From: Kineococcus radiotolerans SRS30216 = ATCC BAA-149 | Lineage (GTDB): Bacteria > Actinomycetota > Actinomycetes > Actinomycetales > Kineococcaceae | Length of the DNA: 32,000 nucleotides | Direction of reading: 5' to 3' | Assembly (NCBI RefSeq): GCF_000017305.1 | Contig: NC_009664.2 | Location: 930,001 to 962,000, forward strand | Shown here: positions 5,586 to 29,610 of the stretch, in pieces | How the letters are laid out: the number at the start of each line of letters is the position of its first letter | Position numbering within the stretch: the stretch's first letter is position 1 | Made by a program: the position numbers and the translations under genes | The notes under the pieces: model-generated | Told to the model about the DNA's origin: nothing | The model's input: the letters and a program-made list of their open reading frames with translations, nothing else | Databases searched by the model: none

Positions 5586-5601
5586 TGAACCGTCCGGTTC
5601 A
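5586..5601. promoter_or_regulatory. 16-bp inverted repeat TGAACCG-TC-CGGTTCA, 18 nt upstream of the monooxygenase start (candidate operator)
   Basis: Perfect 7-bp arms, read directly. Its position between the likely promoter and the RBS (GAGAGGGG at 5605-5612) suits a repressor site. No regulator can be assigned from the sequence alone. Confidence 0.4.
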
Positions 5602-5619
5602 ACGAGAGGGGTCAGGCCC

Positions 5620-7047: not shown

Positions 7048-7627
7048 CCTCCCCGACGCGGGCGCAGAACGCCTCCAGGGCCTGCGCCTGCACCCGCCCC
7101 ACCGCGGCGGCGTCCCCGGTGATGATGAGCGTCATCTGCAACCCCCGCCACAACGCGGTGAGCTCCACCGCGCGGGCCTCGGCCAGCGCGGGGGTCATCC
7201 CCTCGCGCTGGAACCGCGCGACGGCCGGGCCCTGCCAGGACCCGATGTCTCCGAGCAGGTCCGCGTACCCGGCCTGCTGGGAAGCCTGGCCGAAGACCTC
7301 GAAGAACAACCGCAGGAACGGCAGGTTGCCCGGGGCGGCGATCTGGTCCCAGACCCGCTGCAGGTCCGCGCGCAGGTCGCCGTCGCCGTTCTCCAGCGCG
7401 GCCCAGGCGTTCTCGAACGAGGGGAACGCGTCGCGGCCGACGGCCCGCAGGGCCTCCCCCACCAGCTGTTCCTTGCTGCCGAAGTAGTACAACAGCATGC
7501 GGTTGTTGGAACCCACGGCCCGGGCCAGCCCGCGCAGCGTCAGCGACGTGACGCCGTGGGCCAGGACGTGCTCCGCCACCAGCCGCAGCAACCGGTCCCG
7601 TTCCACACCCCCAGGGTAGCCACCCAC
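7025..7627 (-). CDS. TetR/AcrR family transcriptional regulator
   Basis: N-terminal HTH: LTLRGLARAVGSNNRMLLYYFGSKEQLV. About 200 aa, mostly helical. The start is GTG at 7627 or the in-frame GTG at 7606. The 3' end overlaps the monooxygenase 3' end by 23 nt (convergent). Confidence 0.85.
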   Translation of the reverse strand: MGGYPGGVERDRLLRLVAEHVLAHGVTSLTLRGLARAVGSNNRMLLYYFGSKEQLVGEALRAVGRDAFPSFENAWAALENGDGDLRADLQRVWDQIAAPGNLPFLRLFFEVFGQASQQAGYADLLGDIGSWQGPAVARFQREGMTPALAEARAVELTALWRGLQMTLIITGDAAAVGRVQAQALEAFCARVGEVTPPRVL

Positions 7628-7638
7628 CAGGAGGAACC

Positions 7639-8616
7639 ATGCGCGATCTCGCGGCCCTGCCCAAGGCGCACCTGCACATCCACCTCGAGGGCGCCATGCG
7701 CCCCTCGACCCTCGCGGAGTTCGCGGCGGAGGCCGGCGAGACCGCTCCCCCGACCCGGGGGTTCACCTCCTTCCCGCAGTTCGTGGAGATGTACGACGGC
7801 GCCGTCGCGTTCATCCGGACGCGGGAGCAGCTGGCCCGGGTCGTCCGCGAGGTCGTCGAGGACGCGGCGCTCTCCGGCGCCGTCTGGATCGAGGCCCAGG
7901 CCAACCCGATGTTCTACGTGCCCCGGTTCGGGACTCCCGAGGAGGTCCTGACCTTCATGCTGGAGGTCGGCCGGGCCGAGGCCGCCCGCCTCGGCATCGG
8001 TTTCGGGATGATGGCCGTGGCCATCCGCAGCCTGCCGACCGCCGAGGCTGAGGCGCTGGCCGTCCTGGCCGCCGAGTTCGCCGACCGCGGGGTCGTCTCC
8101 TTCGGCCTCGCCGCCGACGAGGCGCTGTGGCCGCCGGCCCCCTTCGAGCGGGCGTTCGCCATCGCCCGCGAGGCCGGGCTGACGTCGGCCCCGCACGCCG
8201 GGGAACTGCTCGGGCCGGAGAGCATCGTCGGGGCCCTCGACCTGCTCGGGGCCCAGCGCATCCAGCACGGCGTCCGCGCCGTCGAGGACCCCGAACTGGT
8301 CCGGCGCCTCGCCGCCGAGGGCATCGTCCTCGACGTCTGCCCGACCTCGAACGTCGAGCTGTGGGTCGTCCCCGAGATCGGCGCGCACCCGCTGCCCGCG
8401 TTGCTGGAGGCCGGCGTGCGCTGCTCCATCAACGGGGACGACCCGCTCCTCTTCGGACCCGGGCTGCTGGAGGAGTATGAGACGGCCCGCACCGCGCTGG
8501 GGCTCTCCGACGACCAGCTCGCCGGTGTCGCCAAGGCGTCGCTGGAGGGCTCGGCCGCCCCCGCGGAGCTCGTCACCGCCCAGGTCGCCGCCGTCGACGC
8601 CTGGCTGGCGGGGTGA
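7639..8616 (+). CDS. add: adenosine deaminase family protein
   Basis: Metal-binding HxH motif LPKAHLHIHLEG, the HAGE motif (SAPHAGELLGPE), and a C-terminal SINGDDPLLFG (xNxDDP) motif. AGGAGGAA lies 4 nt upstream of the ATG. Confidence 0.9.
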   Translation: MRDLAALPKAHLHIHLEGAMRPSTLAEFAAEAGETAPPTRGFTSFPQFVEMYDGAVAFIRTREQLARVVREVVEDAALSGAVWIEAQANPMFYVPRFGTPEEVLTFMLEVGRAEAARLGIGFGMMAVAIRSLPTAEAEALAVLAAEFADRGVVSFGLAADEALWPPAPFERAFAIAREAGLTSAPHAGELLGPESIVGALDLLGAQRIQHGVRAVEDPELVRRLAAEGIVLDVCPTSNVELWVVPEIGAHPLPALLEAGVRCSINGDDPLLFGPGLLEEYETARTALGLSDDQLAGVAKASLEGSAAPAELVTAQVAAVDAWLAG

Positions 8617-8680
8617 GCGCACCCGCCGGTCCCGGCGCGGCCGTCCCGGGCCCGGGAAGCGGAGCGCGGGCACACCGCCC

Positions 8681-8721
8681 GGCTCCGGTCCGCGGTCCCG
8701 GCGGGACCACGGACCGGAGCC
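8681..8721 (-). terminator. 19-bp stem-loop starting 1 nt downstream of the glgP stop (candidate intrinsic terminator, usable on either strand)
   Basis: GGCTCCGGTCCGCGGTCCC / ggc / GGGACCACGGACCGGAGCC. There is one C.A mismatch on the plus strand, which becomes a G.U wobble in the minus-strand (glgP) RNA. It sits between convergent add and glgP. There is no clear U-tract. Confidence 0.5.
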
Positions 8722-8722
8722 G

Positions 8723-11287: not shown

Positions 11288-11388
11288 GGGCGCCGACACT
11301 AGACCCGCGGTCGGCGCAGGTCGACGCCTCCGGGCGCAGCGGGCGCTCCCGCGCGACGCGGCGCCCTCCCCTCGGTAGGTTGCGGGTC

Positions 11389-13443
11389 GTGACCATCGAG
11401 CGCGGAGCGGACCAGGGCACCCGAGGAGACACGTTGACCGTGCGGACGGACGCGGGGAGCACCCCCGTGGTGGGGCGCATCCCGGTGCTGGGCGTGGAGC
11501 CCGTCGTCGACGCCGGCCGGTGGCCGTCGCAGGCGGTGCCCGGGGAGCTCGTCCCGGTGCGGGCCACCGTCTTCCGCGAGGGGCACGACGCGGTGGCCGC
11601 GACCGCGGTGCTGGTCCGCCCCGACGGCACCGACGGGCCCTCGGCCCGGATGACCCTGGTGAACGCCGGCAAGGACGCCTACGCCGCGACCCTCTCCCCC
11701 GACGCCGAGGGCGATTGGGGCCTGCGCGTGGAGGGCTGGTCCGACCCCTACGGCACCTGGGACCACGACGCCACGATCAAGGTCGAGGCCGGGGTCGACG
11801 TGGCCCTCATGCTGGAGGAGGGCGCGCGGCTGATGGAGCGCGCCGCCGCCGCGCCCGGGCGCGCCGACGCCGACGTGCAGGTGCTGCGGGAGGCCGCCGA
11901 CGCCCTGCGCGACACCTCCCGCGGCGACCACGAGCGCCTGGACGCCGGCCGCAGCGAGGCCGTGCGCGAGGTCCTGGACCGGCTGCCGGTGCGCGACCTG
12001 GTGACCGCGTCGGCGACCTACCCGCTGCGCGTGGAGCGCAGGCTGGCGGCCTTCACCGCGTGGTACGAGTTCTTCCCCCGCTCCGAGGGGGCCTACTGGG
12101 ACGAGGAGGCGCAGCGCTGGGTGTCGGGGACGTTCCGCACCGCGGCCGAGCGGCTGCCGGCGATCGCCGAGATGGGCTTCGACGTCGCCTACCTGACCCC
12201 GATCCACCCCATCGGGCGCGTCAACCGCAAGGGCCCGAACAACAGCCTCACCGCCGGCCCGCTGGACCCCGGTTCGCCGTACGCGATCGGGGCCGCCGAG
12301 GGCGGGCACGACGCGCTGCACCCGGACCTGGGGACCTTCGAGGACTTCGACGCCTTCGTGGCCCGGGCGAAGGAGCTGGGCCTGGAGGTCGCGATGGACA
12401 TCGCCCTGCAGTGCGCCCCGGACCACCCCTGGGTCACCGAGCACCCGGAGTGGTTCACCACCCGGGCCGACGGGTCGATCGCGTTCGCGGAGAACCCGCC
12501 CAAGAAGTACCAGGACATCTACCCGCTGAACTTCGACAACGACCCGGCGGGGATCTACGCCGAGGTCAAGCGCGTCGTCGAGGTGTGGATCGACCACGGC
12601 GTGACGCTGTTCCGGGTCGACAACCCCCACACCAAGCCGGTGGAGTTCTGGGAGTGGCTCATCACCGAGGTGCGCCGGGACCACCCGGAGGTGATCTGGC
12701 TGGCCGAGGCGTTCACCAAGCCCGCCATGATGCACACCCTGGCCAAGGTGGGCTTCCAGCAGTCGTACTCCTACTTCGCCTGGCGCAACGCCGCCTGGGA
12801 GATCCGGGAGTACCTGGAACAGCTGACCACCGAGTCCGCGCACTACATGATCCCCAGCTTCTGGCCGACCACGCACGACATCCTCACCCCGACCATGCAG
12901 TACGGCGGGCCGCCGGTGTTCAAGCTGCGCGCGGTGCTGGCCGCGCTGCTGAGCCCCTCGTGGGGCATCTACACCGGCTACGAGCTCGTCGAGCACGCGG
13001 CGCGGCCCGGGGCGGAGGAGCAGCTGGACAACGAGAAGTACCAGTACCGCCCCCGCGACTTCGCGAAGGCCGAGGCCGAGGGCTGGTCGCTGGCCCCCTA
13101 CCTGAAGCGGCTCAACGAGGTCCGCCGCGCCCACCCGGCGCTGCAGCAGCTGCGCGGCACCGTCTTCCACGCCAGCGACGACGAGAACGTCCTCTGCTTC
13201 TCCCGCCGCCGCGTCGAGGCCGACGGCACCGAGGACCTCGTGATCGTGGTGGTCAACCTCGACCCGCACTCGACCCGGGAGACCACCGTCCACCTGAACA
13301 TGGGCGCGCTGGGCCGGCAGTGGTGGGACCGCTTCACCGTGCGCGACGAGCTGACCGGGGCCGAGTTCGAGTGGGGCGAGCACGACTACGTGCGCCTGGA
13401 CCCCCACGTCGAACCCGCTCACGTCTTCTCCGTGCGGTCCTGA
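11389..13443 (+). CDS. glgE: alpha-1,4-glucan:maltose-1-phosphate maltosyltransferase GlgE
   Basis: [20 protein letters not shown]...[10 protein letters not shown]...[11 protein letters not shown]...[10 protein letters not shown]...LAEAFT... is the GlgE signature. The start is ambiguous. GTG 11389 lies 7 nt after a TAGGTT -10-like hexamer, which would fit a leaderless transcript. TTG 11434 lies 5 nt after GAGGAG. The track start at 11278 would overlap glgP. Confidence 0.93.
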
Positions 13444-13445
13444 CG

Positions 13446-15193
<1,748 letters not shown>

Positions 15194-15197
<4 letters not shown>

Positions 15198-16597
15198 GCG
15201 CGGACGTCCGCACCTCCGCCGCCTCCGACGAGGCCGTCGCCGCCCTGCTGCTCGAGTGGGCCCCGGCTCAGCGGTGGTTCGCGCACAAGGGCGTCGCCGC
15301 CCACGTGGAGCGCATCGAGCGCACCCCCCTCGACGAGGGCGGGGTGGCGCAGCTCGTCGCGCTCACCGTGCGCTCCGGGGAGGGCGAGGACGCCCCGCGC
15401 ACCGTCTACTCGGTGCCGATCAGCGTCCGCCCGGCCCCCGACGAGGCCCTGGCCGCGGCCCTCGTCGGCGAGCTCCCCGACGTCGACGGGGCCCGGGCCT
15501 GGGTCTACGACGGCCCGCACGACCCGACGTGGACGCGCGCGCTGCTGACCCTCGTCGCCAGCGAGGAGGGGGCCGGCTCGCGCAGCTTCGGCGTCCACGG
15601 CACCAGCGCCGACGGCGGGCTGCCCGTCCCGGCCGGGGCGCGCACCAAGGTGCTGGGCGGGGAGCAGTCGAACACCTCGATCGTCGTGGCCGCCGACGAG
15701 GGCGAGACCCCCCTCATCGCCAAGGTCTTCCGGGTCCTCTCCGCCGGGGACAACCCCGACGTCGTCGTGCAGACCGCCCTCGCCGACGCCGGCTGCGGGC
15801 GGGTCCCGCGCCCCTCGGGGTGGGTGGACGGCCACTGGACCGACGTCTCGGGCGAGCGGGTCGCGGGCCACTTCGTCCACCTGACGGAGTTCCTGGCCGG
15901 GTCCGAGGACGCCTGGCGGGTCGCCACGGCGGCCGTGGCGCAGGGGCGCGACTTCTCCGCCGAGGCCCGCGAGCTGGGCCGGGCCACCGCCGAGGTGCAC
16001 GCCGTGCTCGCGGCGGAGCTGGCCACCGAGGAGGCCACCCCGCAGCGGCTGGCGGCGCTGGCCGACGGCCTCCTGGAGCGGGTCGAGTGGGCCACCACGG
16101 CCGTCCCGCAGCTGCGCGAGGTGGCCGGGGCCGCCCGCGCCCGCGTCGACGCCGTCCGCGGCGTCGCGCACGCCCCGGCGCTGCAGCGCGTGCACGGGGA
16201 CTACCACCTGGGCCAGGTCCTGCACTCGGCCTCCCGGGGCTGGGTGCTGCTGGACTTCGAGGGCGAGCCGCTGCGGCCGCTGTCCGAGCGCAGCCTGCCC
16301 GACCTCGCGCTGCGCGACGTCGCGGGGATGCTGCGCTCCTTCGACTACGCCGCCTCCACCGTGCCCGACCCGGGCGACTGGGGCCCCCGGGCCCGGGAGG
16401 CGTTCCTCGACGGCTACGCCGAGGTCGTCGGCACCGACCCGCGGCAGGGCGAGCAGGCCGTGCTGCTGGCCGCCCTCGAGCTCGACAAGGCGCTCTACGA
16501 GGTCGTCTACGAAGCCCGCAACCGGCCCGACTGGTTGCGCATCCCGCTGGACGCCGTGCACCGGTTGCTCCAGTCCGCCTCCGCCGACCCGTCCTGA
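15194..16597 (+). CDS. pep2: maltokinase (maltose 1-phosphate-forming) Pep2/Mak
   Basis: Has the [12 protein letters not shown] motif, the catalytic [10 protein letters not shown]...DFEGEP motif and a [14 protein letters not shown]-terminus, all typical of Mak/Pep2. GTGA start/stop overlap with treS. Confidence 0.9.
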
Positions 16598-16634
16598 GAG
16601 GCGAGGTCCTGACCACCACGGGAGACTCCCAACC

Positions 16635-18833
<2,199 letters not shown>

Positions 18834-18989: not shown

Positions 18990-19925
18990 TCAGGCCAGGC
19001 CGAGCTCGGTCAGGAACGCCGTGGCGACGGCCGCCGAGGACTTCTTGTCCACCTGCACCTGGGCCAGGAACTTCGTGAGGTTCTCCGTCGTCAGCTTCGC
19101 CGACAGGCCGTCGAGGGCCTCGGTGATCTCGGGGGTGTTCTTCTCGGACCGGATGAGCGGGAGGATGTTCTCCGCCAGGAACAGCTGCTTGGTGTCCTCC
19201 AGGACGACGAAGCCGTTCGTCGTGATGGCGGAGTCGGTGGAGAAGATGTTGCCGACCTGGATGGTGCCGTCGGCCAGCGCCCCGACGGTCAGCGGGCCGC
19301 CGGCGTCCAGCGGGCGGAACTCCTTGAACTGCACGCCGTAGAGCTCCTTGAGCCCCACGAGGCCCTGGTACCGCTCCTGGAACTCCGGGCCGGCGCCGCA
19401 GACCAGCTCGCCGGCCACCGGCGCGAGGTCCTCGATGGTCTTCAGGCTGTACTTCGACGCCGTCTCCGCGGTCACGGAAAGGGTGTCCTTGTCCTCGGCG
19501 GCGGACTGCTCGAGGACCTCGGTCCCCTCCGGCAGGACCTCCTTCAGCGCCCCGAGGACGTCCTCGGGGGCCGAGACGCCCTCGGGGGCGCCGCCGTCGG
19601 ACAGGGCGGCGAGCAGCGCGCCGTTGTACTCCGGCAGCAGGTCGATGGAGCCGTCCTGGAGGGCCTTGAGGTACACCTCGCGGGCGCCGATGTTGAACTT
19701 CCGCTGGACCTCGACACCGGACTTCTCCAGCACCTGGGCGTACATCTCCGCGAGCAGTTCGCTCTCGGGGAAGTTGGCCGAGCCGACGATGACGGCGGCG
19801 GTGTCGGTGGCGGCCCCCGTCGAGGTGTCGGTGGCGGCCAGCGGGTCCTCCCCGCCACCGCAGGCGGTCAGCGCAGCGGTGAGGGAGCCCGCGAGGGCGA
19901 GACCGAGGAGTGACCTGCGATTCAT
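18990..19925 (-). CDS. glycine betaine/choline-type (OpuC/ProX family, OpuAC fold) ABC substrate-binding lipoprotein
   Basis: Signal peptide plus lipobox (LAGSLTAALTACGG). VIVGSANFPESELLAEMYAQVLEKSG...IDLLPEYNGALL... resembles OpuCC/OsmX-type quaternary-amine binding proteins. ATGA overlap with the upstream permease. Confidence 0.85.
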   Translation of the reverse strand: MNRRSLLGLALAGSLTAALTACGGGEDPLAATDTSTGAATDTAAVIVGSANFPESELLAEMYAQVLEKSGVEVQRKFNIGAREVYLKALQDGSIDLLPEYNGALLAALSDGGAPEGVSAPEDVLGALKEVLPEGTEVLEQSAAEDKDTLSVTAETASKYSLKTIEDLAPVAGELVCGAGPEFQERYQGLVGLKELYGVQFKEFRPLDAGGPLTVGALADGTIQVGNIFSTDSAITTNGFVVLEDTKQLFLAENILPLIRSEKNTPEITEALDGLSAKLTTENLTKFLAQVQVDKKSSAAVATAFLTELGLA

Positions 19926-20677
19926 GACGTGCCTTTCGACGTGCCTGCACCGATGAGTTCGGTGTCGGGTTCAACGGGGGACTCTGCCACGGATCCGCGG
20001 CGCCCCGCGCGGGAGCGGCCGCGGCCGCTGATGCCCGGGGAGACGACGTAGCGCTGGACCAGGCCCAGCAGCAGGTCGAGGACGATGGCCAGCGCCGCGA
20101 CCACGACGGCCCCGGCGACGACGCGGCCGTAGTCGTTGACGGCGAGGCCGTCGACGAGGAGGCGACCCAGCCCGGAGAGGCCGACGTAGGCGGCGACCGT
20201 CGCGGTCGCCACGACCTGCAGCACCGCGGCGCGGACCCCGCCGAAGACGACGGGCAGCGCCATGGGCAGCTCGACGCGGAAGAGGACCTGGGAGGAGGTC
20301 ATGCCCATCCCCCGGGCCGCGTCGACGGCGTTGCGGTCCACCGAGCGCAGCCCGGCGTAGGTGGAGGTGAGGATCGGGGGGATGACGAGCACGACGAGGG
20401 CGATGAGGACGGGGACGAACCCGAGCCCCATGAGCGTCACGAGCAGGCTCAGCAGGCCCAGCGTGGGCAGCGAGCGCCCGGCGTTGCCGGCGTTGATGGC
20501 CAGGAAGGACCCCTTGCCGGTGTGGCCGATGAGCAGGCCGATCGGGAAGGCGATGAGGAAGCCCACGGCCACCGAGATCGCGGTGTAGCCCAGGTGCGAC
20601 ACCAGCAGGTGCGGGATGGAGCCGGTGGTCCCCCAGTCCCAGTGGGCGGGGTCGAGCAGGTACGGGGTGCCGTCCAC
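19922..20677 (-). CDS. ABC transporter permease (OpuCB/OpuCD-like) with a roughly 40-aa hydrophilic C-terminal tail
   Basis: Hydrophobic BPD-type permease (...AGNAGRSLPTLGLLSLLV...DAARGMGMTSSQVLFRVELPMALPVVFGGVRAAVLQVVATATVAAYVG...). The GTG start lies 1 nt after the stop of the preceding permease. Confidence 0.85.
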   Translation of the reverse strand: MDGTPYLLDPAHWDWGTTGSIPHLLVSHLGYTAISVAVGFLIAFPIGLLIGHTGKGSFLAINAGNAGRSLPTLGLLSLLVTLMGLGFVPVLIALVVLVIPPILTSTYAGLRSVDRNAVDAARGMGMTSSQVLFRVELPMALPVVFGGVRAAVLQVVATATVAAYVGLSGLGRLLVDGLAVNDYGRVVAGAVVVAALAIVLDLLLGLVQRYVVSPGISGRGRSRAGRRGSVAESPVEPDTELIGAGTSKGTS

Positions 20678-20678
20678 G

Positions 20679-21335
20679 TCAGGCCCCCCGTTCCAGCCGC
20701 GTCCAGGGGGTCACGGCCCGCTGGAACAGCACGATGACGACGTCGGCGATGGCGGCCAGGGCGATGGAGAGCACGATCCCCACGACGATCGGGGCGGTGT
20801 AGAAGAGTTGGAACCCGCGGGTGAACAGCGCGCCCAGCCCGCCCACCCCGAGCAGCGCGCCGACGCTGACGAGGGAGATGTTGGACACGGCCGCGACGCG
20901 CACCCCGGCGAGGACGACCGGCGCGGCCAGCGGCAGCTCCACCTCGAGCAGGCGGCGGGTCCGCCGGTAGCCCATGGCCGTCGCGGCCTCGGTCAGGGTC
21001 GGGTCGACCGAGCGCAGGCCGTCGGCGACGGTGCGGGCCATCAGCGCGATCGTGTAGATCGTCAGCGCCACCACGATGTTCACCGGGGAGAGGATCCGGG
21101 TGCCCAGGACGTAGGGCAGGGTCACGAACACGGCCAGGGAGGGGATCGCGTACACGATCCCGGAGACCCCCAGCAGGGGCTGGTAGAGCCAGCCGAAGCG
21201 CACCCCGAGGTAGCCGATCGGCAGCGCCAGGGCGACCCCGATCACCAGCGGCAGGACGGCCAGCAGGACGTGCTGGCCGAGGGCGTCCAGGACGAGCCCG
21301 GAGTTGCCGGAGAGGTAGTCGAGGATCCCGTTCAC
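20679..21335 (-). CDS. ABC transporter permease (OpuCB/OpuCD-like)
   Basis: 218 aa, hydrophobic. ...EAATAMGYRRTRRLLEVELPLAAPVVLAGVRVAAVSNISLVSVGALLG... is an EAA-type loop. GTGA overlap with the ATPase stop. Confidence 0.85.
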   Translation of the reverse strand: MNGILDYLSGNSGLVLDALGQHVLLAVLPLVIGVALALPIGYLGVRFGWLYQPLLGVSGIVYAIPSLAVFVTLPYVLGTRILSPVNIVVALTIYTIALMARTVADGLRSVDPTLTEAATAMGYRRTRRLLEVELPLAAPVVLAGVRVAAVSNISLVSVGALLGVGGLGALFTRGFQLFYTAPIVVGIVLSIALAAIADVVIVLFQRAVTPWTRLERGA

Positions 21336-22312
21336 CGGCGCTCCTCCAGCAGGTCGACGACGTCGTGGTGGTGCACGATCCCGGTCGCCCGGCCCCGGTC
21401 GTCGACCTGCACCGCGATCCCGAGCGGGGAGGTGAGGGCCAGGTCGACGACGGTGCGCAGGGAGTCCCCGGCGCGGAAGCCGTCGACGCCGACGGGGCGG
21501 CCGTCCCCGTCGAGGACGAGCTGCGCGGCGCGCGCGTCGGTGAGGGGGCGCACCGGCAGGCCGTCCAGGCCCTCGAAGGACAGCCCGCGGTAGCCGCGGT
21601 CGCGGCCGACGAAGGTGCGCACGAAGTCGTCGGCGGGCTTGGTGAGCAGGTCGCGCGGGCTGCCGACCTGGGCGAGGTGCCCGCCCTGGCGGAAGACGGC
21701 GATGCGGTCGCCCAGGGTGATCGCCTCGTCGACGTCGTGGGTGACGACGGCGATGGTCTTGCCCAGCTCGCCCTGCAGGCGGAGGAACTCCTCCTGCAGC
21801 TGCCCGCGCACGACGGGGTCGACGGCGGAGAAGGGCTCGTCCATGAGCATGACCGGCGGGTCCGCGGCCAGGGCGCGGGCGACGCCGACGCGCTGCTGCT
21901 GGCCGCCGGAGAGCTGGGCGGGGTAGCGGTCGGCGAAGGCCGCGGGCAGCCCGACGCGCTCGAGCAGCTCGAGGGCGACCTGGCGCTGCCTGCCCCGCCC
22001 GACGAGCTTGGGCACCGTCAGGACGTTGTCGAGGACGGTCTTGTGGGGGAAGAGGCCCGCGTGCTGGATGACGTAGCCGATGCCCCGGCGCAGCGCGGCG
22101 GGGTCCTTGCCGCGGACGTCCTCGCCGTCGATGGTGACGCGGCCCGCGGTGGGCTCGACCATCCGGTTGATCATGCGCAGCGACGTCGTCTTCCCGCAGC
22201 CCGAGGGCCCCACGAACACCGTGATCTGCCCCGTGGGCAGTTCGAGGTCGAGGTGCTCGACGGCCACCGTCCCGTCGGGGAACTGCTTGCGGACGGCCTC
22301 GAACGTGATCAC
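21332..22312 (-). CDS. ABC transporter ATP-binding protein (OpuCA/ProV-like) with a C-terminal CBS-like region
   Basis: Walker A GPSGCGKTT, signature LSGGQQQRVGVARAL, Walker B VMLMDEPFSAVD, H-loop VTHD. I prefer the GTG at 22312 as the start (VITFEAVRKQF...), preceded by AGGAG. The track ORF extends to 22570, but the added N-terminus is low-complexity. Confidence 0.9.
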   Translation of the reverse strand: MITFEAVRKQFPDGTVAVEHLDLELPTGQITVFVGPSGCGKTTSLRMINRMVEPTAGRVTIDGEDVRGKDPAALRRGIGYVIQHAGLFPHKTVLDNVLTVPKLVGRGRQRQVALELLERVGLPAAFADRYPAQLSGGQQQRVGVARALAADPPVMLMDEPFSAVDPVVRGQLQEEFLRLQGELGKTIAVVTHDVDEAITLGDRIAVFRQGGHLAQVGSPRDLLTKPADDFVRTFVGRDRGYRGLSFEGLDGLPVRPLTDARAAQLVLDGDGRPVGVDGFRAGDSLRTVVDLALTSPLGIAVQVDDRGRATGIVHHHDVVDLLEERR

Positions 22313-22493
22313 TGGCGGCTCCTGGGTTGAACCGACGACGCCACGGGGCGCGCCTGCTGTGCTGCGGTCTCGGGCGGGTACATGGTTGGCGGTGGGTCGG
22401 GCCCGGTCAACTCCAGCCGACCGGGGACGACCAGCTTTCACCAGATCGAGACCTCGCACGGACCCGGGGTCGCGCGGGACCTGCGGAGGAAGA

Positions 22494-23987
22494 GTGCAGC
22501 ACGAGGACGCCCCGGGCGCGACTCGCGGGGTGCGGGTCGAGGGTCGCGGCCTCGGGCTGGACGACCTCACCGACCTCGCCCTGGGCCGCGCGCACGCGGT
22601 CGTCGACCGCGACGTGCTGGGCCGTCTCGGCGTGCTGCACGAGGCGATGGGCGCCGCCCGCGAGCGCGGCGCGGTCTACGGCGCGACGACCGGGGTGGGC
22701 GCCAACAAGGACGTCGAGGTCGACGACGAGCAGCACGAGCACCCGCAGGCCCACGGGCTGCGGCTGCTGCGCAGCCACGCGGCGTCGCTGGGCCCGGTGG
22801 AGGACGAGGCGACGACCCGCGCGGCGCTGGTGGTGCGGCTGAACCAGCTGCTGGCCGGCGCGCACGCGGGCCTGGGGGCGGGGATCAGCCCGCCGGTCCT
22901 GCGCGCCCTGGCCGAGGCGGTGGAGTCCGGGGCGCTGCCGACGCTGCACCGCTTCGGCGGCATCGGGACCTCGGACCTGGCGCCGCTGGCGGAGCTGGGG
23001 CTGACCCTCGTCGGGGAGCGGCCGTGGCGGCGCGGGGCGGTGGCGCCCGTGCCGCTGGGCGCCGCCGACGCGCTGCCGCTCATCAGCTCCCACGCCCTGA
23101 CGCTGGCGACGGCGTCGCTGGCCCTGTGCCGGTTGCGGCAGCTGCTGCTGGCGGGGACGGGGATCTCGGCGCTGTCGTTCCTGGCGCTGCGCGGCAACCC
23201 GCAGGCGTGGGCGCCGCCCGTGCACGCCGCCCGCGCCCACCCCGCCCAGACCGGGCTGGCCGCGACGCTGCACGCGCTGGTGGCCGGCGGCCCGGAACCC
23301 GCGCGGTTGCAGGACCCGTTCGCGCTGCGGACCGCGCCGCAGGTGCTGGCCCCCGCCTTCACCGCGGCGCAGGCCCTGGAGGACGTGCTGGCGCTGGAGG
23401 CCTCGACGCCCGGGGAGAACCCGCTGGTCTCCCCCGAGGGGGTCTTCCACCACGGCCAGTTCCACGCCGCGTCCCTGGCCACCGCCCTGGACACGTTGCG
23501 GGCGACCACCTTCGGGGTGCTGACGCTGTCCGCGGCCCGCCTCGCGCTGCTGCTGCGCCCGGAGCACACCGGGTTGCGGGCGTTCCTGGCCGCCGGTCCG
23601 CGCGGGAGCTCGGGCCTGATGATCGGCGAGTACGTCGTGCAGGACGTGCTGGCCGAGCTGCGCCCGGCGACGGCCCCCTCCACGTCGGGGACGGTCAGCA
23701 TCTCCCTCGGCCTGGAGGAGCACGCGAGCTTCGCGACCCAGGGGGCGCGCGCGCTGCGCCAGACCGCGGAGCTGGCGCCGGTGGTGCTGGCCGTCGAGGC
23801 GCTGGCCGCGGTGCGCGCGCTGCGGGCCGCGCCGGACCGGATGTCGCCCGGGGCGGCGGCGCTGTTCGCGGTCTTCGACGAGGTGCTCGGCCGCGACTCC
23901 CGCGACGCGCCCATCGGCCCGGACGTGGAGGCGGTGGTGGCGCGGGTGGTGGACCTGTCGCTGTTGGTGCGGGTCCCGCCGGTCTGA
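22494..23987 (+). CDS. histidine/aromatic amino-acid ammonia-lyase family protein, paralogue 1, lacking the canonical MIO-forming Ala-Ser-Gly triad
   Basis: Family motifs are present: AVYGATTGVG (Tyr loop), LLRSHAAS, GGIGTSDLAPLAELGL, LQDPFALRTAPQV, GENPLV...HHGQFHA, and GLEEHASF. Where the family has GASGDLAPL, this protein has GTSDLAPL (Gly-Thr-Ser, 22965-22973). The start is GTG 22494, preceded by GGAGGAAGA. The upstream part of track ORF 22080.. is antisense to the ATPase gene. Confidence 0.8.
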   Translation: MQHEDAPGATRGVRVEGRGLGLDDLTDLALGRAHAVVDRDVLGRLGVLHEAMGAARERGAVYGATTGVGANKDVEVDDEQHEHPQAHGLRLLRSHAASLGPVEDEATTRAALVVRLNQLLAGAHAGLGAGISPPVLRALAEAVESGALPTLHRFGGIGTSDLAPLAELGLTLVGERPWRRGAVAPVPLGAADALPLISSHALTLATASLALCRLRQLLLAGTGISALSFLALRGNPQAWAPPVHAARAHPAQTGLAATLHALVAGGPEPARLQDPFALRTAPQVLAPAFTAAQALEDVLALEASTPGENPLVSPEGVFHHGQFHAASLATALDTLRATTFGVLTLSAARLALLLRPEHTGLRAFLAAGPRGSSGLMIGEYVVQDVLAELRPATAPSTSGTVSISLGLEEHASFATQGARALRQTAELAPVVLAVEALAAVRALRAAPDRMSPGAAALFAVFDEVLGRDSRDAPIGPDVEAVVARVVDLSLLVRVPPV

Positions 23988-24002: not shown

Positions 24003-24563
24003 TCAGTCCAGGGGGCGCAGCTCGTCGGCGTAGCTGACCGACATCCGGCGCATCACCCCGGAGGGGCTGATCGAGTACTGGCCCATCCGCCACAGCGGCG
24101 GGGAGTAGGCGTGGATGGACACCGAGCCGTCGACGGCTCCGGACATCCGGTGGATGTGGTCGGGGCCGAAGGCGAAGGACCGCCCGGCGGCGACGGTGCG
24201 GACGGCGGGTTCCCCGCCCATGCGGGGGTTGGCCTCGACGACGGCGCCGCGGGTGACGGCGACCGCGCCGGAGGAGGTGTCGTGGTCGTGCCAGCCGGTG
24301 TCGTCGTCGGTGTTCCAGCACAGCAGCCACACGTCGAGGTCGCCGTCGCGGTGCAGGGAGGCGTAGTGGCGTCCCCCGGTGTCGTGGCGGACGAGGTGCT
24401 CCCACGCCCCGGGCCGGCGGGCGGCCTCGTCGACCCAGTCCTTCAGCTCGCGCGGGGTGAGGGTGCGCCCGGGCGCGGGGGGCAGCCCGGCGGGCGGGCC
24501 GGCCGGGGCGCCGGGGGCGCCGGGCGCTCCGAGAGCTCCGGGGGCGTCGGGGGCGAGGGTCAT
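24003..24563 (-). CDS. cysteine dioxygenase type I-like cupin (thiol dioxygenase family)
   Basis: 186 aa. The cupin metal-ligand pattern TGWHDHDTSSGAVAVTRG ... GPDHIHRMSG ... SIHAYSPPL resembles bacterial CDO/MDO homologues. The N-terminal roughly 30 aa are Pro/Gly/Ala-rich. ATGA overlap with the upstream amidohydrolase gene. Confidence 0.75.
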   Translation of the reverse strand: MTLAPDAPGALGAPGAPGAPAGPPAGLPPAPGRTLTPRELKDWVDEAARRPGAWEHLVRHDTGGRHYASLHRDGDLDVWLLCWNTDDDTGWHDHDTSSGAVAVTRGAVVEANPRMGGEPAVRTVAAGRSFAFGPDHIHRMSGAVDGSVSIHAYSPPLWRMGQYSISPSGVMRRMSVSYADELRPLD

Positions 24564-25471
24564 CGGGGGCTCCCGTCGAGGAGGTGGGCGGGGTTGGTGG
24601 TGGTGAGGGCGTGCGCGAAGGCCGCCCCGAAGCCGGGGAGGTCCGCGGCCTCGAAGGGCTGGGCGTAGGGCCGGTCGGTGCCCAGCACGAGGGGGTCGAC
24701 GCCGACGACGCGGACGAGGGCGTCGATCGCGCGGGGCCCGTAGGAGCTGCTCTCGTAGTGCACCAGCGGGTCCAGGGGGCCCAGGGCGCCGCCGCGGGCG
24801 GCGAGGCGCTCGTGGTGCAGCGGCGCCAGCCCCGCCAGGGCGACGAAGGCGGTGCGCAGCCGGGGGTGCCGGGCGCGGCCGGCCACGTGCCAGGCCAGCC
24901 AGGCGGCGTGCAGCTGCTGGACGTAGGGCACCAGCGCGGGCCACCAGGGCGGCAGGGCGGCGTGGTCGCCCGCGGGCGCGGGCCCGGGGTGGACGAGGAC
25001 GGGCTTGTCGGCGAGCTCGCACTCGGCCAGCAGCGGGGCGAGGCGCTCCACGGCGCGGGGGTCGGCGAGGGCGGTGGCCGGCAACTGCAGACCGACGACG
25101 CGCTCGTGGCGCAGCGTCTTCGCGAGCGCGCCGGGGTCGAGGTCGGTGACCCCGGCGGCGGCCCAGACCCGGAAGGGCTCGGGCAGCTCGACGGCGCCCT
25201 CGTGCCAGGCGTCCAGCAGCGGCTGCGCCTCCTCGCCCGGCAGGTGCTCCAGCCCCAGCGGGGAGGACAGCGAGACCAGGGCCCGGCCGGTGCCGTCGGC
25301 GGCCTCGGCGGCGGCCCGGGCGGCGACGTCGTGGGCGGCGGGGTCGAGGGCGCAGGGCGGCTCGCCCGGCAGGTGCAGGGTCCAGCCGTCCAGGCGCGGC
25401 GGGGTGCGCCGCGCGCGCAGGGCCGCCAACAGGGACGGCGGCCACAGGTGCTGGTGGCAGTCGGTGCGCAC
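24560..25471 (-). CDS. Amidohydro_2 (ACMSD/LigI-type) metal-dependent hydrolase/decarboxylase family protein
   Basis: N-terminal HxH motif (VRTDCHQHLWPP), a late Asp motif (LVLGTDRPY), and about 300 aa in length. I prefer the GTG at 25471 as the start, preceded by GGAGGGGAGGGGG. The track start at 25534 lies inside an operator palindrome. Confidence 0.75.
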   Translation of the reverse strand: MRTDCHQHLWPPSLLAALRARRTPPRLDGWTLHLPGEPPCALDPAAHDVAARAAAEAADGTGRALVSLSSPLGLEHLPGEEAQPLLDAWHEGAVELPEPFRVWAAAGVTDLDPGALAKTLRHERVVGLQLPATALADPRAVERLAPLLAECELADKPVLVHPGPAPAGDHAALPPWWPALVPYVQQLHAAWLAWHVAGRARHPRLRTAFVALAGLAPLHHERLAARGGALGPLDPLVHYESSSYGPRAIDALVRVVGVDPLVLGTDRPYAQPFEAADLPGFGAAFAHALTTTNPAHLLDGSPR

Positions 25472-25495
25472 GGCGTCCCCCTCCCCTCCGGCTCT

Positions 25496-25509
25496 GTGAA
25501 GCGCTTCAC
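25496..25509. promoter_or_regulatory. LacI-family operator candidate O1: perfect 14-bp palindrome GTGAAGCGCTTCAC
   Basis: Perfect dyad with a central CG, matching the LacI/GalR-type operator architecture (TGnAAnCGnTTnCA). It lies 25 nt upstream of the amidohydrolase start and in the divergent intergenic region shared with the LacI gene. Confidence 0.65.
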
Positions 25510-25520
25510 TCCTCCGTCGA

Positions 25521-25534
25521 GTGAAGCGCTTCAC
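25521..25534. promoter_or_regulatory. LacI-family operator candidate O2: second identical 14-bp palindrome GTGAAGCGCTTCAC
   Basis: Identical copy, 25 bp centre-to-centre from O1. With flanking bases, the two form 16-bp perfect inverted arms (TGTGAAGCGCTTCACT / AGTGAAGCGCTTCACA) separated by 9 bp. Confidence 0.65.
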
Positions 25535-25592
25535 AGGGAGGTCGTCAAGTCGGGCCGCCCGGCGCGCGGCGGCCCGGGGTTACGCTGCGGCC

Positions 25593-26594
25593 GTGCCGAA
25601 CCGAGCGCGCCGCACGCTGCAGGACGTCGCCGACGCCGCCGGGCTCTCGCTGGCCGCGACCTCCTACGCCCTGCGCGGGGCCCGCGGGTCGGCCGCCACC
25701 ATCGAGCGCGTGCAGGCCCTCGCCCTCGAGCTCGGCTACCGGGTCGACCCCATCGCGCGCGCCCTGGCCAGCGGGCGGACCGGGACGGTGGGCATCAGCG
25801 GGTCGCTGCGCGACCTCTGGCAGCAGGACCTCTCGGTGATGCTGACCCGGGCCCTGCGCGCCGCCGACCGCGACGCCACCATCGCCGACGCCGACGCCGA
25901 CCCCGCCGTGGAGCGCCGCGTCGTGGAGCGCTTCGCCGAGCAGCGCGTCGACGGCGTCCTCGTCTCCCCCGTCGACCCCTCCGCCGACTACTGGTCCGCG
26001 CTCCCGCCCTCCACCGCGGTCGTCTCCATCGGCGACGCGCTGCCCGGCCGCCCCGGCAGCGGCGCGGTCCTCTTCGACAACCGTCACGGCGTGACGACGG
26101 CCCTGCGGCACCTGCGCGACCTCGGCCACCGGCGCGTCGCGCTGCTCACCACCTCCCTGCCCACGACCCCGGGCCGGCCCGCGGAGCTGCACGCCGTGGA
26201 GGCCGCGAAGCGCCTGGGGCTGGACCTGCTCGTCGTCCCGGCCACCGCCGCGCGGGCCGCCGCGGCCGCCGCCGGGCCCCTCACCGCCCCCGACCGGCCC
26301 ACCGCGGTGCTGTGCCTGTCCGACTCCCTCGCCTTCGGCGTCTACCGCGCGGCGGCCGACCTCGGGCTGCGGATCCCCGGGGACCTGTCCGTGGTCGGCT
26401 TCGACGACCACCAGCTGGCCGCCCTCGTCGCCCCCGGGCTCACCACCGCGGCCTGGGACGAGGACGCCGTCGTCGAGGCCGCCGTCGCGCAGCTGCTGGC
26501 CCTGGAGGGCGGTGGGGAGGTCCCCGCTCCGGTCACCTTCCGGCCCGAGCTCGTGGTGCGCTCCTCCACCGGCCCCCCGGCCGGCGCGGACTAG
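25593..26594 (+). CDS. LacI family transcriptional regulator
   Basis: N-terminal HTH TLQDVADAAGLSLAATSYALRG...IERVQALALELGYRVDPIARALASGRTGTVGI, followed by a periplasmic-binding-protein-like effector domain (...VDGVLVSP...LSVVGFDD...). The GTG at 25593 lies 7 nt after a TACGCT -10-like hexamer, so the transcript may be leaderless. The track start at 25521 is inside operator O2. Confidence 0.85.
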   Translation: MPNRARRTLQDVADAAGLSLAATSYALRGARGSAATIERVQALALELGYRVDPIARALASGRTGTVGISGSLRDLWQQDLSVMLTRALRAADRDATIADADADPAVERRVVERFAEQRVDGVLVSPVDPSADYWSALPPSTAVVSIGDALPGRPGSGAVLFDNRHGVTTALRHLRDLGHRRVALLTTSLPTTPGRPAELHAVEAAKRLGLDLLVVPATAARAAAAAAGPLTAPDRPTAVLCLSDSLAFGVYRAAADLGLRIPGDLSVVGFDDHQLAALVAPGLTTAAWDEDAVVEAAVAQLLALEGGGEVPAPVTFRPELVVRSSTGPPAGAD

Positions 26595-28018
26595 GCGCCC
26601 GCACCGCCCCAGCCCGCCTCCAGCAGGGCGCCGAGGCGGCCCAGGTCGCGGCCGTAGGGCCGGTCCGCGACGTCCTCGCCGAGCTCGGCGCCCACCGCGT
26701 CGAGCAGCGCGCCCAGCTCCGCCGACACCCCCGCCAGGCCCCCGCGCAGCAGCCGGGCGCGGTGCACGGCCAGCAGCTCCACGGCCACGACCTCGCGCAG
26801 GCCCGCGAGCACCTCGGCGAGGCCCTCGGCGGACTCCAGGGCGAAGCTCTGCACGTCCTCCTGCCCCAGCGAGGTCTCCACCGCCCCCAGCCCCGCCGGC
26901 AGCGCGAACCGCCGCAGCCGGTGCACGACCCCCACCGCGCGCTTGTGGACGGCGACCAGCCCCGCCTGCACCCCGGGCTCGGGCGAGAGCTGCGGGGGCA
27001 GCCCCGTCCGGGCGGGGTCGAGCATCCGGTGGGTGCGGGCCGCGCCGGTCTCGGCGAGGTGGACCAGCGCCGCGGCCAGGGCGTCGGAGTCGGCGCCGAG
27101 GTCGGTCCCGGCGAAGCCCGCGGTGCCGCCGAACCGCCCGTCGAGGAACGCGGGGGAATCGGTCACCCCCTCCAGCGCCCGGTCCGCCGCCGCCGCGAGC
27201 GCGTGGACGCGGCGGTGCACCAGCGCGCAGGCGGCGGCGCCGACCCGCACCGACACCGGGGCCTGCAGGCCGTGGACCTCCCCGCCCGGCCGCCGCTCGC
27301 GCAGCCGCGCCAGGACCGCGGCCAGGACGTCGTCGCCGCGGGCCGCCCCGGCCCGCACCGGGTCGCGGCTGGCCCGCAGGACCTCCCCGGAGGCGGCCAG
27401 CACGAGCTCGGCCTGCGCGAGCAGGAGGTCCGCCGCGGCGACGTGCAGCGTCGCCAGGGCGGTCGCGACGGGAACCCCCTCCAGGAACGCGACCCCCTCC
27501 TTGGGGCCGAACGGGAACTCCGGCAGGGCCCGCCCGTCGAGGGTCCCCGACCCGCCCAGGACCACGGCGCCCACGTGGGCGAGGGGGATGATCTCCCCCG
27601 CCGCCCCGTTGCCGCGCCGGGGGACCTGCGGGTGCACGCGGGCGTTCAGCAGTTCCACGAGCCGTTCGCACAGCTGCGGGGAGACGCCCGCCTCCGGGTG
27701 CAGGTACGTCCGCAGCCGCACGGCCAGGACGGCACGGACCTCCCGCTCGGACAACCACGGGGCCGACCCCACGGCCCGGCCGACGACCAGGTTCGCCTGG
27801 TGCCGGGCCCGGGCGGCGTCGTCGAGGTCGACCCCGGCCATCGCCCCCATCCCGGTGCTCACGCCGTAGACCGGGCCGGAACCCTCCAGCGCGGTCAGGA
27901 CCGCCGCCCGGGAACCGGCCAGCCGCCGCCGCAACCCCGCCGACAGCTCGACGCGCTCGCCGGCGGCGACCCGCAGGACGGCCGCCCGGTCCAGGTCGGG
28001 ACCGCGGTGCAGCAGCAC
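26591..28018 (-). CDS. histidine/aromatic amino-acid ammonia-lyase family protein, paralogue 2, lacking the canonical MIO triad (Ala-Ala-Gly)
   Basis: Family pattern: PVYGVSTGMG (Tyr loop), RRGNGAAGEIIPLAHVG (in place of KGSVGASGDLAPLAH), LQAPVSVRV, and GQEDVQSF. The GTG start lies 1 nt after the stop of the upstream serine hydrolase (TGAGGTG). Its stop overlaps the lacI-family stop (CTAG). Confidence 0.8.
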   Translation of the reverse strand: MLLHRGPDLDRAAVLRVAAGERVELSAGLRRRLAGSRAAVLTALEGSGPVYGVSTGMGAMAGVDLDDAARARHQANLVVGRAVGSAPWLSEREVRAVLAVRLRTYLHPEAGVSPQLCERLVELLNARVHPQVPRRGNGAAGEIIPLAHVGAVVLGGSGTLDGRALPEFPFGPKEGVAFLEGVPVATALATLHVAAADLLLAQAELVLAASGEVLRASRDPVRAGAARGDDVLAAVLARLRERRPGGEVHGLQAPVSVRVGAAACALVHRRVHALAAAADRALEGVTDSPAFLDGRFGGTAGFAGTDLGADSDALAAALVHLAETGAARTHRMLDPARTGLPPQLSPEPGVQAGLVAVHKRAVGVVHRLRRFALPAGLGAVETSLGQEDVQSFALESAEGLAEVLAGLREVVAVELLAVHRARLLRGGLAGVSAELGALLDAVGAELGEDVADRPYGRDLGRLGALLEAGWGGAGA

Positions 28019-28019
28019 C

Positions 28020-29408
28020 TCAGACGGGCCGGCGCAGGGTGCGCAGCGGCGGCCCGTGCAGCGGGGTGGTCGCCCACGTGCCGCGGAACTCCCCGCCGCG
28101 CAGGGTCAGGTGCAGGCGGTGCGGGGTTTCCAGGAACACGACCTCCAGGCCGCCCGCGCCGGCGCTGACAGCCAGGGGCCCGGTCACCGCCCACTCCCCC
28201 GCGCCGACCGCCGCGCGCAGCTCGTCGCCGGAGTCGTGCAGCACGACCTCGCCGCCCTCGACCACCACCCGCGTCAGCGAGGCGGGCTCGCTGCCGGCGG
28301 CGGCGGTGAACTCCCCCACCGGCAGGTCCCCCGCCGCGGCGGGCGGCAGGGCGAGCTGCGACAACCGCTGCGCCAGTTCGGCTTCGGCCGGGCCGGGGTC
28401 GGCCGGCAGCTCGGGATCGCCCAGCGCGGGCAGCAGGTGCTCCCACGCCGCGTCCAGGACGGCCTGCATGTCCGGGCTCTGCGAGGTGACCGCCACGACG
28501 GCGTCCTGCTCGGGCAGGACCACGCAGAACTGGCCGTAGGCGCCGTCGCCGCGGTAGCCGTGGCGGGCCACCCAGAACTGGAACCCGTAGCCCTGCTGCC
28601 AGTCGGGGTTGTCGTTGAACGAGGCGTTGTCGACGTGGGAGCGGGTGGCCTCCTCGACCCAGGCCTCCGGCAGCAGCCGTTCCCCGTTCCAGACCCCGCG
28701 CTGCAGGTACAGCTGCCCCAGCTTCGCGACGGCCTCGGTGGGGGCGTGGAAGCCGGACCACCCCAGCTCGCGGTCCTGCCCGTCGCGCAGCCAGCCGATG
28801 TCGCCGGCGTCGATCCCCAGCGGGTCGAGCAGGCGCGGGCGCAGGTACTCCAGCAGCCCCTGGCCGGACCGCCGCTGGACGATCGCCGAGAGGGCGAAGG
28901 TGCAGGGCTGGTTGTAGCAGAACAGGGTGCCGGGTTCCGCGTCGGGACGGAGCTGCAGGAAACCCCGCACGACGTCGCCCGAGGGGTGCTCCAGGGCCCG
29001 GCCGAGGGTCTCCTCGCGGTGCCCGCTGGCCATGGCCGCCACGTGGCGGACGAGGATGCGCCGGGCCCGGTCGTCGGTCACCTCGGCGTCGAACTCGGGG
29101 AAGTACGACACCACCGTCGCGTCGAGGTCCACCAGACCCTCCTCGACCGCGAACCCCAGCGCGGTCGAGGTGAAGCTCTTGCTGAGGGAGTAGAGCAGGT
29201 GCGGGCGCTGCGGCGCGTAGGGCGCCCACCACCCCTCGGCGACGACGGCCCCGTGGCGCAGGACCTGCACGCTGTGGGGTTCGACGTCCGGGGCGGCCTC
29301 CAGGGCGTCGAGGAACGCGGAGATCCCGCGGGCGTCGACCCCCTGGGCCGAGGGGCTCGTCCGGGGCAGCGGGCCGGGGACGGGGGACGGGGTGGCTTCG
29401 GTGCTCAC
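28020..29408 (-). CDS. beta-lactamase-fold serine hydrolase (class C/esterase/aminopeptidase-like)
   Basis: SxxK nucleophile motif in LLYSLSKSFTSTALG. The GYGFQFW motif and a roughly 460-aa length fit the 'serine hydrolase domain-containing protein' family. I prefer the GTG at 29408 as the start (VSTEATPSP...). The track start at 29513 adds an Arg/Gly-rich stretch. Confidence 0.8.
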   Translation of the reverse strand: MSTEATPSPVPGPLPRTSPSAQGVDARGISAFLDALEAAPDVEPHSVQVLRHGAVVAEGWWAPYAPQRPHLLYSLSKSFTSTALGFAVEEGLVDLDATVVSYFPEFDAEVTDDRARRILVRHVAAMASGHREETLGRALEHPSGDVVRGFLQLRPDAEPGTLFCYNQPCTFALSAIVQRRSGQGLLEYLRPRLLDPLGIDAGDIGWLRDGQDRELGWSGFHAPTEAVAKLGQLYLQRGVWNGERLLPEAWVEEATRSHVDNASFNDNPDWQQGYGFQFWVARHGYRGDGAYGQFCVVLPEQDAVVAVTSQSPDMQAVLDAAWEHLLPALGDPELPADPGPAEAELAQRLSQLALPPAAAGDLPVGEFTAAAGSEPASLTRVVVEGGEVVLHDSGDELRAAVGAGEWAVTGPLAVSAGAGGLEVVFLETPHRLHLTLRGGEFRGTWATTPLHGPPLRTLRRPV

Positions 29409-29610
29409 GGCGACGACTCTAGGCCCCGGGCGTCCCCTCCCCCGGGACCCGGGGACGGGCGGGAAACGGGTTGCGGTCCCGGCCCGGCGGGCGCACGATC
29501 GCCGGGTCCCCACCCCCGACCCCGGGAGCGACCGCGGTGCTCAGCTGACGTGCCCGAACCCCCCGACCCGCCGCCCCGCGCGGGTCCCCGGCGCACGTCC
29601 TGGAGCTCCC

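Follow-up and report, generated by a model that had tools for sequence, protein, structure and literature searches.

The gene at positions 22494 to 23987 of a 32,000-nucleotide stretch of Kineococcus radiotolerans SRS30216 = ATCC BAA-149 (contig NC_009664.2, positions 930,001 to 962,000; the whole stretch is referred to here as the window) encodes a protein of the histidine ammonia-lyase (HAL) family in which the Ala-Ser-Gly triad that forms the methylidene-imidazolone (MIO) cofactor is missing. As judged from its sequence, this protein, HAL-like paralogue 1 (HAL1), is very probably MIO-free, and by analogy with characterised enzymes it is likely to be a trimethylammonia-lyase. Hercynine (N-alpha-trimethylhistidine) is on balance the substrate that we favor, and a cytoplasmic MIO-free lyase that would convert hercynine to urocanate and trimethylamine is the function that we consider reasonably probable. 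HAL1 belongs to a large, uncharacterised clade whose members are now labeled histidine ammonia-lyase or aromatic amino acid ammonia-lyase. The gene is given here, with positions numbered from the first letter of the window:

22494 to 23987, + strand: HAL1, 497 amino acids, PF00221; proposed MIO-less trimethylammonia-lyase.

The coding sequence probably starts at a GTG codon (22494) with a GGAGGA Shine-Dalgarno sequence just upstream and ends at 23987, in a window with a G+C content of 74%. The Kineococcus radiotolerans database protein matched HAL1 at 100% rounded identity, with one Met/Leu difference visible. HAL1 is a full-length Lyase_aromatic domain (Pfam PF00221, E 2e-91) without a signal peptide. 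Its scores were less than half of the curated hutH cut-offs (217 versus 539 bits for TIGR01225 and 231 versus 524 bits for NF006871), while its best sequence matches in the PDB were HALs (HMMER, E 1e-39 to 1e-30). No model covering either MIO-less lyases or clusters of the ergothioneine dioxygenase (ETDO) type was found in NCBIfam or Pfam. The AlphaFold2 model of HAL1 had a pLDDT of 89 and a pTM of 0.91, with low-pLDDT stretches that include residues 63-70, which form the mobile Tyr lid, and residues 405-407. The function could not be called by a fold search with this model, and that approach was rejected, since HAL, tyrosine aminomutase and ergothionase all gave a TM score of about 0.85 without discrimination; PAL structures likewise scored about 0.85.

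The central observation concerns the cofactor loop. The original prediction had read Gly-Thr-Ser at 22965-22973 in place of Ala-Ser-Gly, and these nucleotides (GGG ACC TCG) do encode Gly158-Thr159-Ser160, in frame with the open reading frame that ends at 23987. The alignment behind that reading, made by eye on the DLAPLA sequence following the triad, is correct for the right flank; the ungapped pairing of Gly-Thr-Ser with Ala-Ser-Gly misaligns the left flank. Both the HMMER alignments against solved HALs and the MAFFT alignments, which included Pseudomonas putida HAL, the Treponema denticola ergothionase and the Shewanella woodyi histidine-betaine lyase (sequence taken from a preprint supplement), place a one-residue gap in the HAL1 loop, with GGIG aligned to GSVG and DLAPLA aligned to DLAPLA. 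Two residues of HAL1, Thr-Ser, therefore face the three of Ala-Ser-Gly. No register gives an X-Ser-Gly triad in HAL1. Two features of this region are needed below:

22956 to 22976, + strand: cofactor loop Gly155-Gly-Ile-Gly158-Thr159-Ser160-Asp161, with Thr-Ser where HAL has Ala142-Ser143-Gly144.
23085 to 23087, + strand: Ser198, at the HAL Asn195 position in the alignment.

The short loop was present in all 119 loop-covering sequences among the 120 closest homologues (one of the 120 does not cover the loop). Its first residue is Thr in 114 of them, Met in 4 and Ile in 1, and its second is Ala in 69, Gly in 31 and Ser in 19; the HAL Asn195 position is Ser in 120/120. When full-length representatives of clusters at 50% identity were considered, 113 of 119 had the short loop (Thr-Gly in 83, Thr-Ala in 23, Thr-Ser in 2, and Ile-, Val- or Cys-Gly in 5) and the other 6 had Ala-Ser-Gly. 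The change at position 195 is coupled to the loss of the triad, with Ser in 109 of the 113 short-loop representatives and Asn in all six Ala-Ser-Gly-bearing ones and only there. Because the short loop is nearly universal both in the close homologues and in the 50%-identity representatives, it is a family trait rather than a chance event or an oddity of one strain. Ile, Val and Met cannot serve as the residue that dehydrates during cofactor formation, and Ala or Ser would not be tolerated where the amide has to attack. The variation of the loop (Thr, Ile, Val, Met or Cys at the first residue and Ala, Gly or Ser at the second) therefore argues that no conserved MIO-type chemistry is encoded in the HAL1 clade.

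These data also bear on the idea that HAL1 is an ammonia-lyase or aminomutase with a Thr-derived electrophile, in which Gly-Thr-Gly could cyclise to an ethylidene-imidazolone. In the register used in the original prediction 83/119 representatives do read Gly-Thr-Gly, and Asp145 is kept together with the surrounding scaffold. We nevertheless consider this explanation highly improbable, since the third position of that register holds Ala in 23 representatives and Ser in 2 as well as in HAL1, and Thr has given way to Ile, Val or Cys in 5 representatives and to Met or Ile in 5 close homologues. In addition, with both flanks in register the loop does lack one residue, Ser has taken the place of Asn195, no MIO is present in the short-loop enzyme of known structure, and a trimethylamino group is needed by all the MIO-deficient lyases published.

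Outside the cofactor loop, the catalytic and substrate-binding residues have been kept. The motifs listed in the original prediction (VYGATTGVG, SHAA, LQDPFALRTAPQV and EEHAS) were all found in HAL1, and the replacement of HAL Tyr280 by Phe was borne out, Phe276 being aligned with Tyr280 by both HMMER and MAFFT. This replacement is no family hallmark, because the position is Tyr in about half of the 50%-identity representatives (61 Tyr versus 52 Phe). The equivalents of HAL Tyr53, His83, Gln277, Arg283, Asn313, Phe329 and Glu414 are 99-100% conserved in the 120 closest homologues, and this conservation of catalytic and binding residues indicates that the HAL1 active site is under selection. 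The residues that enter the argument are as follows:

22677 to 22679, + strand: Tyr62, equivalent of HAL Tyr53 (beta-proton acceptor); conserved in 120/120 homologues and located in the low-pLDDT mobile loop, residues 63-70.
22776 to 22778, + strand: His95, equivalent of HAL His83 (imidazole binding); conserved in 119/120.
23310 to 23330, + strand: Gln273-Asp-Pro-Phe276-Ala-Leu-Arg279; retains the Gln and Arg that bind the carboxylate and has Phe for HAL Tyr280.
23628 to 23633, + strand: Glu379-Tyr380; Tyr380 lies in the alignment column of ergothionase Lys384 (thiolate binding).
23715 to 23717, + strand: Glu408, equivalent of HAL Glu414 (imidazole binding); conserved in 120/120.

The predicted loss of the family cofactor and the presence of a second paralogue in the cluster would also be compatible with a non-catalytic relic or with a binding or regulatory protein. 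Such a role is very improbable, given that the catalytic Tyr and all the substrate-binding residues are almost fully conserved in more than 100 clusters at 50% identity and that the synteny with a transporter, described below, is stable. The two-residue loop, the Asn195 to Ser change and the conserved binding residues support instead the earlier suggestion of a scaffold that looks functional and a MIO electrophile that is probably missing or altered.

Several MIO-free enzymes of PF00221 are on record: ergothionase (PDB 6S7J), Swoo_3913, SO_3057 (an ergothionase) and SO_3299. Trimethylamine is a leaving group good enough to be expelled without MIO, and every MIO-deficient lyase reported so far requires a trimethylamino group (bioRxiv 10.1101/2025.08.13.670108). 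A close parallel to HAL1 is the histidine-betaine lyase of Shewanella woodyi (Swoo_3913, referred to as Sw_HBL), for which the conversion of hercynine to urocanate and trimethylamine, the reaction predicted for HAL1, has been assayed. Both proteins lack Ala-Ser-Gly (GSVG-LS-D in Sw_HBL and GGIG-TS-D in HAL1), both have Ser in place of Asn195, and both keep the catalytic Tyr, the carboxylate ligands and the imidazole ligands, together with a neutral residue in the Lys384 column. This residue is Asn in Sw_HBL and Tyr in HAL1. Sw_HBL is periplasmic and Mg2+-dependent and is coupled to a urocanate reductase in anaerobic respiration (bioRxiv 10.1101/2025.08.13.670108), whereas HAL1 has no signal peptide and is encoded beside an importer and an O2-dependent ergothioneine dioxygenase. 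In addition, Glu379-Tyr380, His319-His320 and His324, which are invariant in HAL1, are absent from Sw_HBL.

The ergothionase from Treponema denticola (Td_ETL, PDB 6S7J) is likewise MIO-free, with the fold of HAL1 (TM 0.85-0.86), an SSIG-EG-D loop and Ser in place of Asn195. It differs in having the thiolate-binding Lys384, where HAL1 has Tyr380, and in acting in the non-oxidative thiourocanate pathway. HutH (P. putida, 1B8F; Thermoplasma acidophilum, 7TQR) shares the fold and the substrate-binding equivalents, but HAL1 departs from it in lacking Ala-Ser-Gly, in the Asn195 to Ser and Tyr280 to Phe changes, and in its score (231 against the 524-bit cut-off). SO_3299, the N-pi-methyl-histidine-betaine lyase of Shewanella oneidensis, is MIO-deficient like HAL1; the neutral Gln434 replaces Lys384 and hercynine is not accepted (bioRxiv 10.64898/2026.04.22.720169), the comparison with HAL1 being by description only.

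The column of ergothionase Lys384 bears on the substrate. This Lys of Td_ETL binds the ergothioneine thiolate and is reported to be essential for ergothionase activity, and Asn or Gln at this position marks enzymes with sulfur-free substrates (bioRxiv 10.1101/2025.08.13.670108; bioRxiv 10.64898/2026.04.22.720169). In the HAL1 clade the residue is Tyr in 120/120 closest homologues and in 113/119 representatives, and Tyr is also found there in the Ala-Ser-Gly-type (actinobacterial-type) HALs nearest the clade. HAL1 thus has the combination expected of a hercynine lyase, a neutral residue in this column (Tyr380) with both imidazole ligands, His95 and Glu408, intact, although this criterion is suggestive in nature.

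The genes around HAL1 point in the same direction. The features of the neighborhood are as follows:

24003 to 24563, - strand: ETDO orthologue, PF05995; convergent with HAL1, with a 15-bp gap.
24560 to 25534, - strand: putative ergothioneine-sulfinate desulfinase, amidohydrolase_2-like; start codon uncertain.
18990 to 22330, - strand: OpuA/EgtU-type ABC transporter operon (Pfam, NCBIfam), divergent from HAL1.
21332 to 22330, - strand: transporter ATPase with CBS (Pfam).
20679 to 21335 and 19922 to 20677, - strand: transporter permeases (Pfam).
18990 to 19925, - strand: transporter binding protein; best solved relative EgtUC, E 2e-29.
25521 to 26594, + strand: LacI-family regulator (Pfam); start uncertain.
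25496 to 25509 and 25521 to 25534 (region 25494 to 25536), no strand assigned: two perfect 14-bp palindromes, GTGAAGCGCTTCAC, candidate LacI operators.
26591 to 28018, - strand: HAL-like paralogue 2 (HAL2), Pfam PF00221; predicted MIO-less.

The ETDO orthologue was matched by phmmer (E 1.9e-69) to PDB entries 8QFL-8QFR, which are titled 'Ergothioneine dioxygenase from Thermocatellispora tengchongensis'. The AlphaFold2 model of this ETDO orthologue reached a pLDDT of only 51 and was dropped as evidence, the identification being based on the sequence match and the PDB titles. The ETDO gene starts with an ATG (24563-24561, - strand) that forms an ATGA overlap (region 24557-24566) with the stop codon of the putative desulfinase gene upstream, and this overlap suggests that the two genes are translationally coupled. 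The upstream product had weak matches only, to IDCase/ACMSD decarboxylases, and no Pfam or NCBIfam match; its candidate role as the ergothioneine-sulfinate desulfinase follows the pathway reported with ETDO in 2024. The oxidative degradation of ergothioneine in Thermocatellispora tengchongensis (PDB 8QFL-8QFR) has a probable counterpart in the window in the form of an ETDO orthologue and a coupled amidohydrolase-like gene, here located beside HAL1.

Synteny was assessed in 80 loci from GTDB species representatives, with denominators giving the loci that had enough flanking sequence. The transporter is divergent from and adjacent to HAL1 in 63/74 loci. ETDO and the putative desulfinase lie within 10 kb of HAL1 in 49/69, and in 37/69 ETDO is directly convergent with it. 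The LacI regulator and a HAL2 orthologue were each found in 49/69. The genera with HAL1 loci include Kineococcus, Actinoplanes, Paractinoplanes, Arthrobacter, Frigoribacterium and Labedella. No conserved context was seen for the 44-49% identical relatives (loci L067-L079), whose neighbors are MFS, MMPL, methyltransferase and response-regulator genes.

Taken with the active-site comparison, this context suggests the following scheme, in which the mechanism is proposed by analogy with ergothionase and the Shewanella histidine-betaine lyase. Ergothioneine or hercynine would be imported by the divergent EgtU-like ABC transporter, and ETDO and the putative desulfinase would convert ergothioneine to hercynine and SO2. 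The ETDO and desulfinase pathway of Thermocatellispora tengchongensis reportedly ends at these two products. In HAL1, the carboxylate of hercynine would be held by Gln273, Arg279 and Asn309 and the imidazole by His95 and Glu408, with the beta-proton removed by Tyr62 on the mobile lid. The quaternary ammonium would then depart without electrophilic assistance, and the short Thr159-Ser160 loop, together with Ser198, may give the N(CH3)3+ group space where HAL has the MIO. The carbon skeleton would thus be passed by HAL1 to the urocanate (Hut) route.

Two other trimethylamine-releasing functions must be weighed against hercynine cleavage. HAL1 could be an ergothionase, an enzyme that splits ergothioneine into thiourocanate and trimethylamine: it appears MIO-less, it lies in an ergothioneine-related cluster beside an EgtU-like transporter, and some genomes have HAL1 and the transporter without a nearby ETDO. 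According to a review, deletion of a putative ergothionase of Mycolicibacterium neoaurum (Mn_3042) slowed ergothioneine loss. However, the essential thiolate-binding Lys384 is Tyr in every HAL1 member but Lys in HAL2 (120/120), and no conserved thiourocanate hydratase-like gene was found in the loci, so that we consider an ergothionase function quite improbable.

The other candidate is a trimethylammonia-lyase for a different histidine-derived betaine, such as N-pi- or N-tau-methyl-hercynine, ergothioneine sulfinate or sulfonate, or a selenoneine-derived compound. SO_3299 shows that enzymes with a neutral residue in the Lys384 column can need a modified betaine, the invariant Glu379-Tyr380, His319-His320 and His324 of HAL1 have no counterpart in Sw_HBL, and the pocket of the transporter binding protein differs from that of canonical EgtU. 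Such a substrate seems unlikely all the same, since the imidazole-nitrogen ligands His95 and Glu408 are kept as in HAL, which argues against an N-methylated ring, the invariant Glu neighboring the Lys384 column would repel sulfinate and sulfonate groups, and the cluster already encodes enzymes, ETDO and the putative desulfinase, that would deliver plain hercynine.

Hercynine therefore remains the substrate that we prefer, but a number of points weigh against this assignment and against the linear pathway. HAL1 shares only 25% identity with Td_ETL and 24% with Sw_HBL, against 30% with P. putida HAL; with HAL2 it shares 28%. HAL1 grouped with the ergothionase and histidine-betaine lyase (ETL/HBL) lineage in 8/100 bootstraps of a rough neighbor-joining tree. 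The Lys384-column rule has mispredicted the exact substrate once, for SO_3299, which needs N-pi-methyl-histidine betaine (bioRxiv 10.64898/2026.04.22.720169). No urocanase gene was present among the Pfam-annotated genes of the window. The transporter binding protein keeps Glu375 and Arg379 of EgtU (S. pneumoniae numbering) but has Lys242 replaced by Ala, Ile243 by Asn, Thr274 by Ala, and the 'invariant' Asp381 by Gln. About 15 loci have HAL1 and the transporter without ETDO within 10 kb. Conversely, in Nocardioides sp. NBC_00368 (locus L081, 9096-14229) ETDO is clustered with a putative desulfinase and an OpuA-type transporter, with no PF00221 gene within 10 kb. Finally, no description of a lyase step after ETDO and the desulfinase, or of a HAL1-like clade completing the pathway, was found in the literature, in a search that did not cover the 2024 ETDO paper, which may already discuss the gene.

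These points restrict how the analogy and the pathway are to be read. Given the low identity and the lack of grouping in the tree, the analogy with Td_ETL and Sw_HBL rests on shared active-site features and not on orthology. The dioxygenase module and the lyase are separable, since each occurs without the other, and a linear pathway is not obligatory. The binding protein is EgtU-like with a different pocket, for which hercynine is a possible ligand. The conserved-neighbor clustering of the loci also revealed neither a urocanase nor a thiourocanate hydratase. In the neighbor-joining tree (30 sequences), the HAL1 clade was recovered in 76 of 100 bootstraps, ETL with HBL in 100, and ETL/HBL with the Ala-Ser-Gly-type HALs in 72, with a crude distance and an arbitrary outgroup and rooting. 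The tree hints that MIO loss in the HAL1 clade was independent of the ETL/HBL lineage, and HAL1 apparently represents a lineage of its own within a known type of enzyme.

It is already established that MIO can be dispensed with when the leaving group is a quaternary ammonium, and to a specialist the finding is expected and not surprising. What is new is the assignment, in which an uncharacterised clade beside the ergothioneine dioxygenase system plausibly completes that pathway. If HAL1 is a hercynine lyase, it would provide the missing step from the product of ETDO and the desulfinase to urocanate, a central metabolite, and soil actinobacteria would release trimethylamine from ergothioneine. 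The present names 'histidine ammonia-lyase' and 'aromatic amino acid lyase' would then be wrong for several hundred database entries, and a two-residue loop with Ser at HAL position 195 would be a simple rule for recognizing MIO-free members. A wider proposal, which we advance tentatively and regard as somewhat doubtful, is that the HAL1 clade (113 or more 50%-identity clusters, among them many from actinobacteria) lost MIO independently and converged on the loop deletion and the Asn to Ser change, that HAL1 and HAL2 represent two new specificities for ergothioneine-derived betaines, and that the cluster is an undescribed, complete O2-dependent route from ergothioneine to urocanate and trimethylamine.

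The second paralogue, HAL2, also has an altered triad. In its homologues Ser143 is replaced by Ala in 120/120 (Ala-Ala-Gly in 114). All 120 also have Arg in place of His83, Glu in place of Asp145, Ser in place of Asn313, and Lys in the ergothionase Lys384 column. HAL2 may act like an ergothionase, or may be a lyase acting on an anionic derivative of ergothioneine. In Actinoplanes-type loci, HAL2 is adjoined by an ornithine cyclodeaminase/mu-crystallin gene (39 loci) and an RpiR-family regulator gene (31 loci); examples of these adjoining genes are L008:15563-16597 (- strand) and L011:16587-17705 (+ strand). In Kineococcus a beta-lactamase-fold gene (28020-29513, - strand) occupies that place beside HAL2, an arrangement seen in only 5 loci.

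Between the desulfinase/ETDO operon and the LacI gene, 18-nucleotide inverted arms enclose the two GTGAAGCGCTTCAC palindromes. In 13 related loci the exact 14-mer occupies the corresponding position, in most of them twice, and it is probably the LacI operator. No copy with two mismatches or fewer was detected in the HAL1/transporter intergenic region. The arms of the palindromes yield mirror-image 'MKRFT' N-termini in the mechanical open reading frames of the desulfinase and LacI genes; because these N-termini come from the palindrome, the real starts of both genes are probably further in.

The part of the window from 1 to 18833 looks unrelated to this system. It contains an NMT1-type ABC system and a luciferase-like monooxygenase (1636-7047), a gene for an adenosine deaminase (7639-8616), and glycogen-type alpha-glucan genes, which encode a phosphorylase-like protein (8723-11299), a GlgE-like protein (11278-13443) and GlgB (16635-18833).

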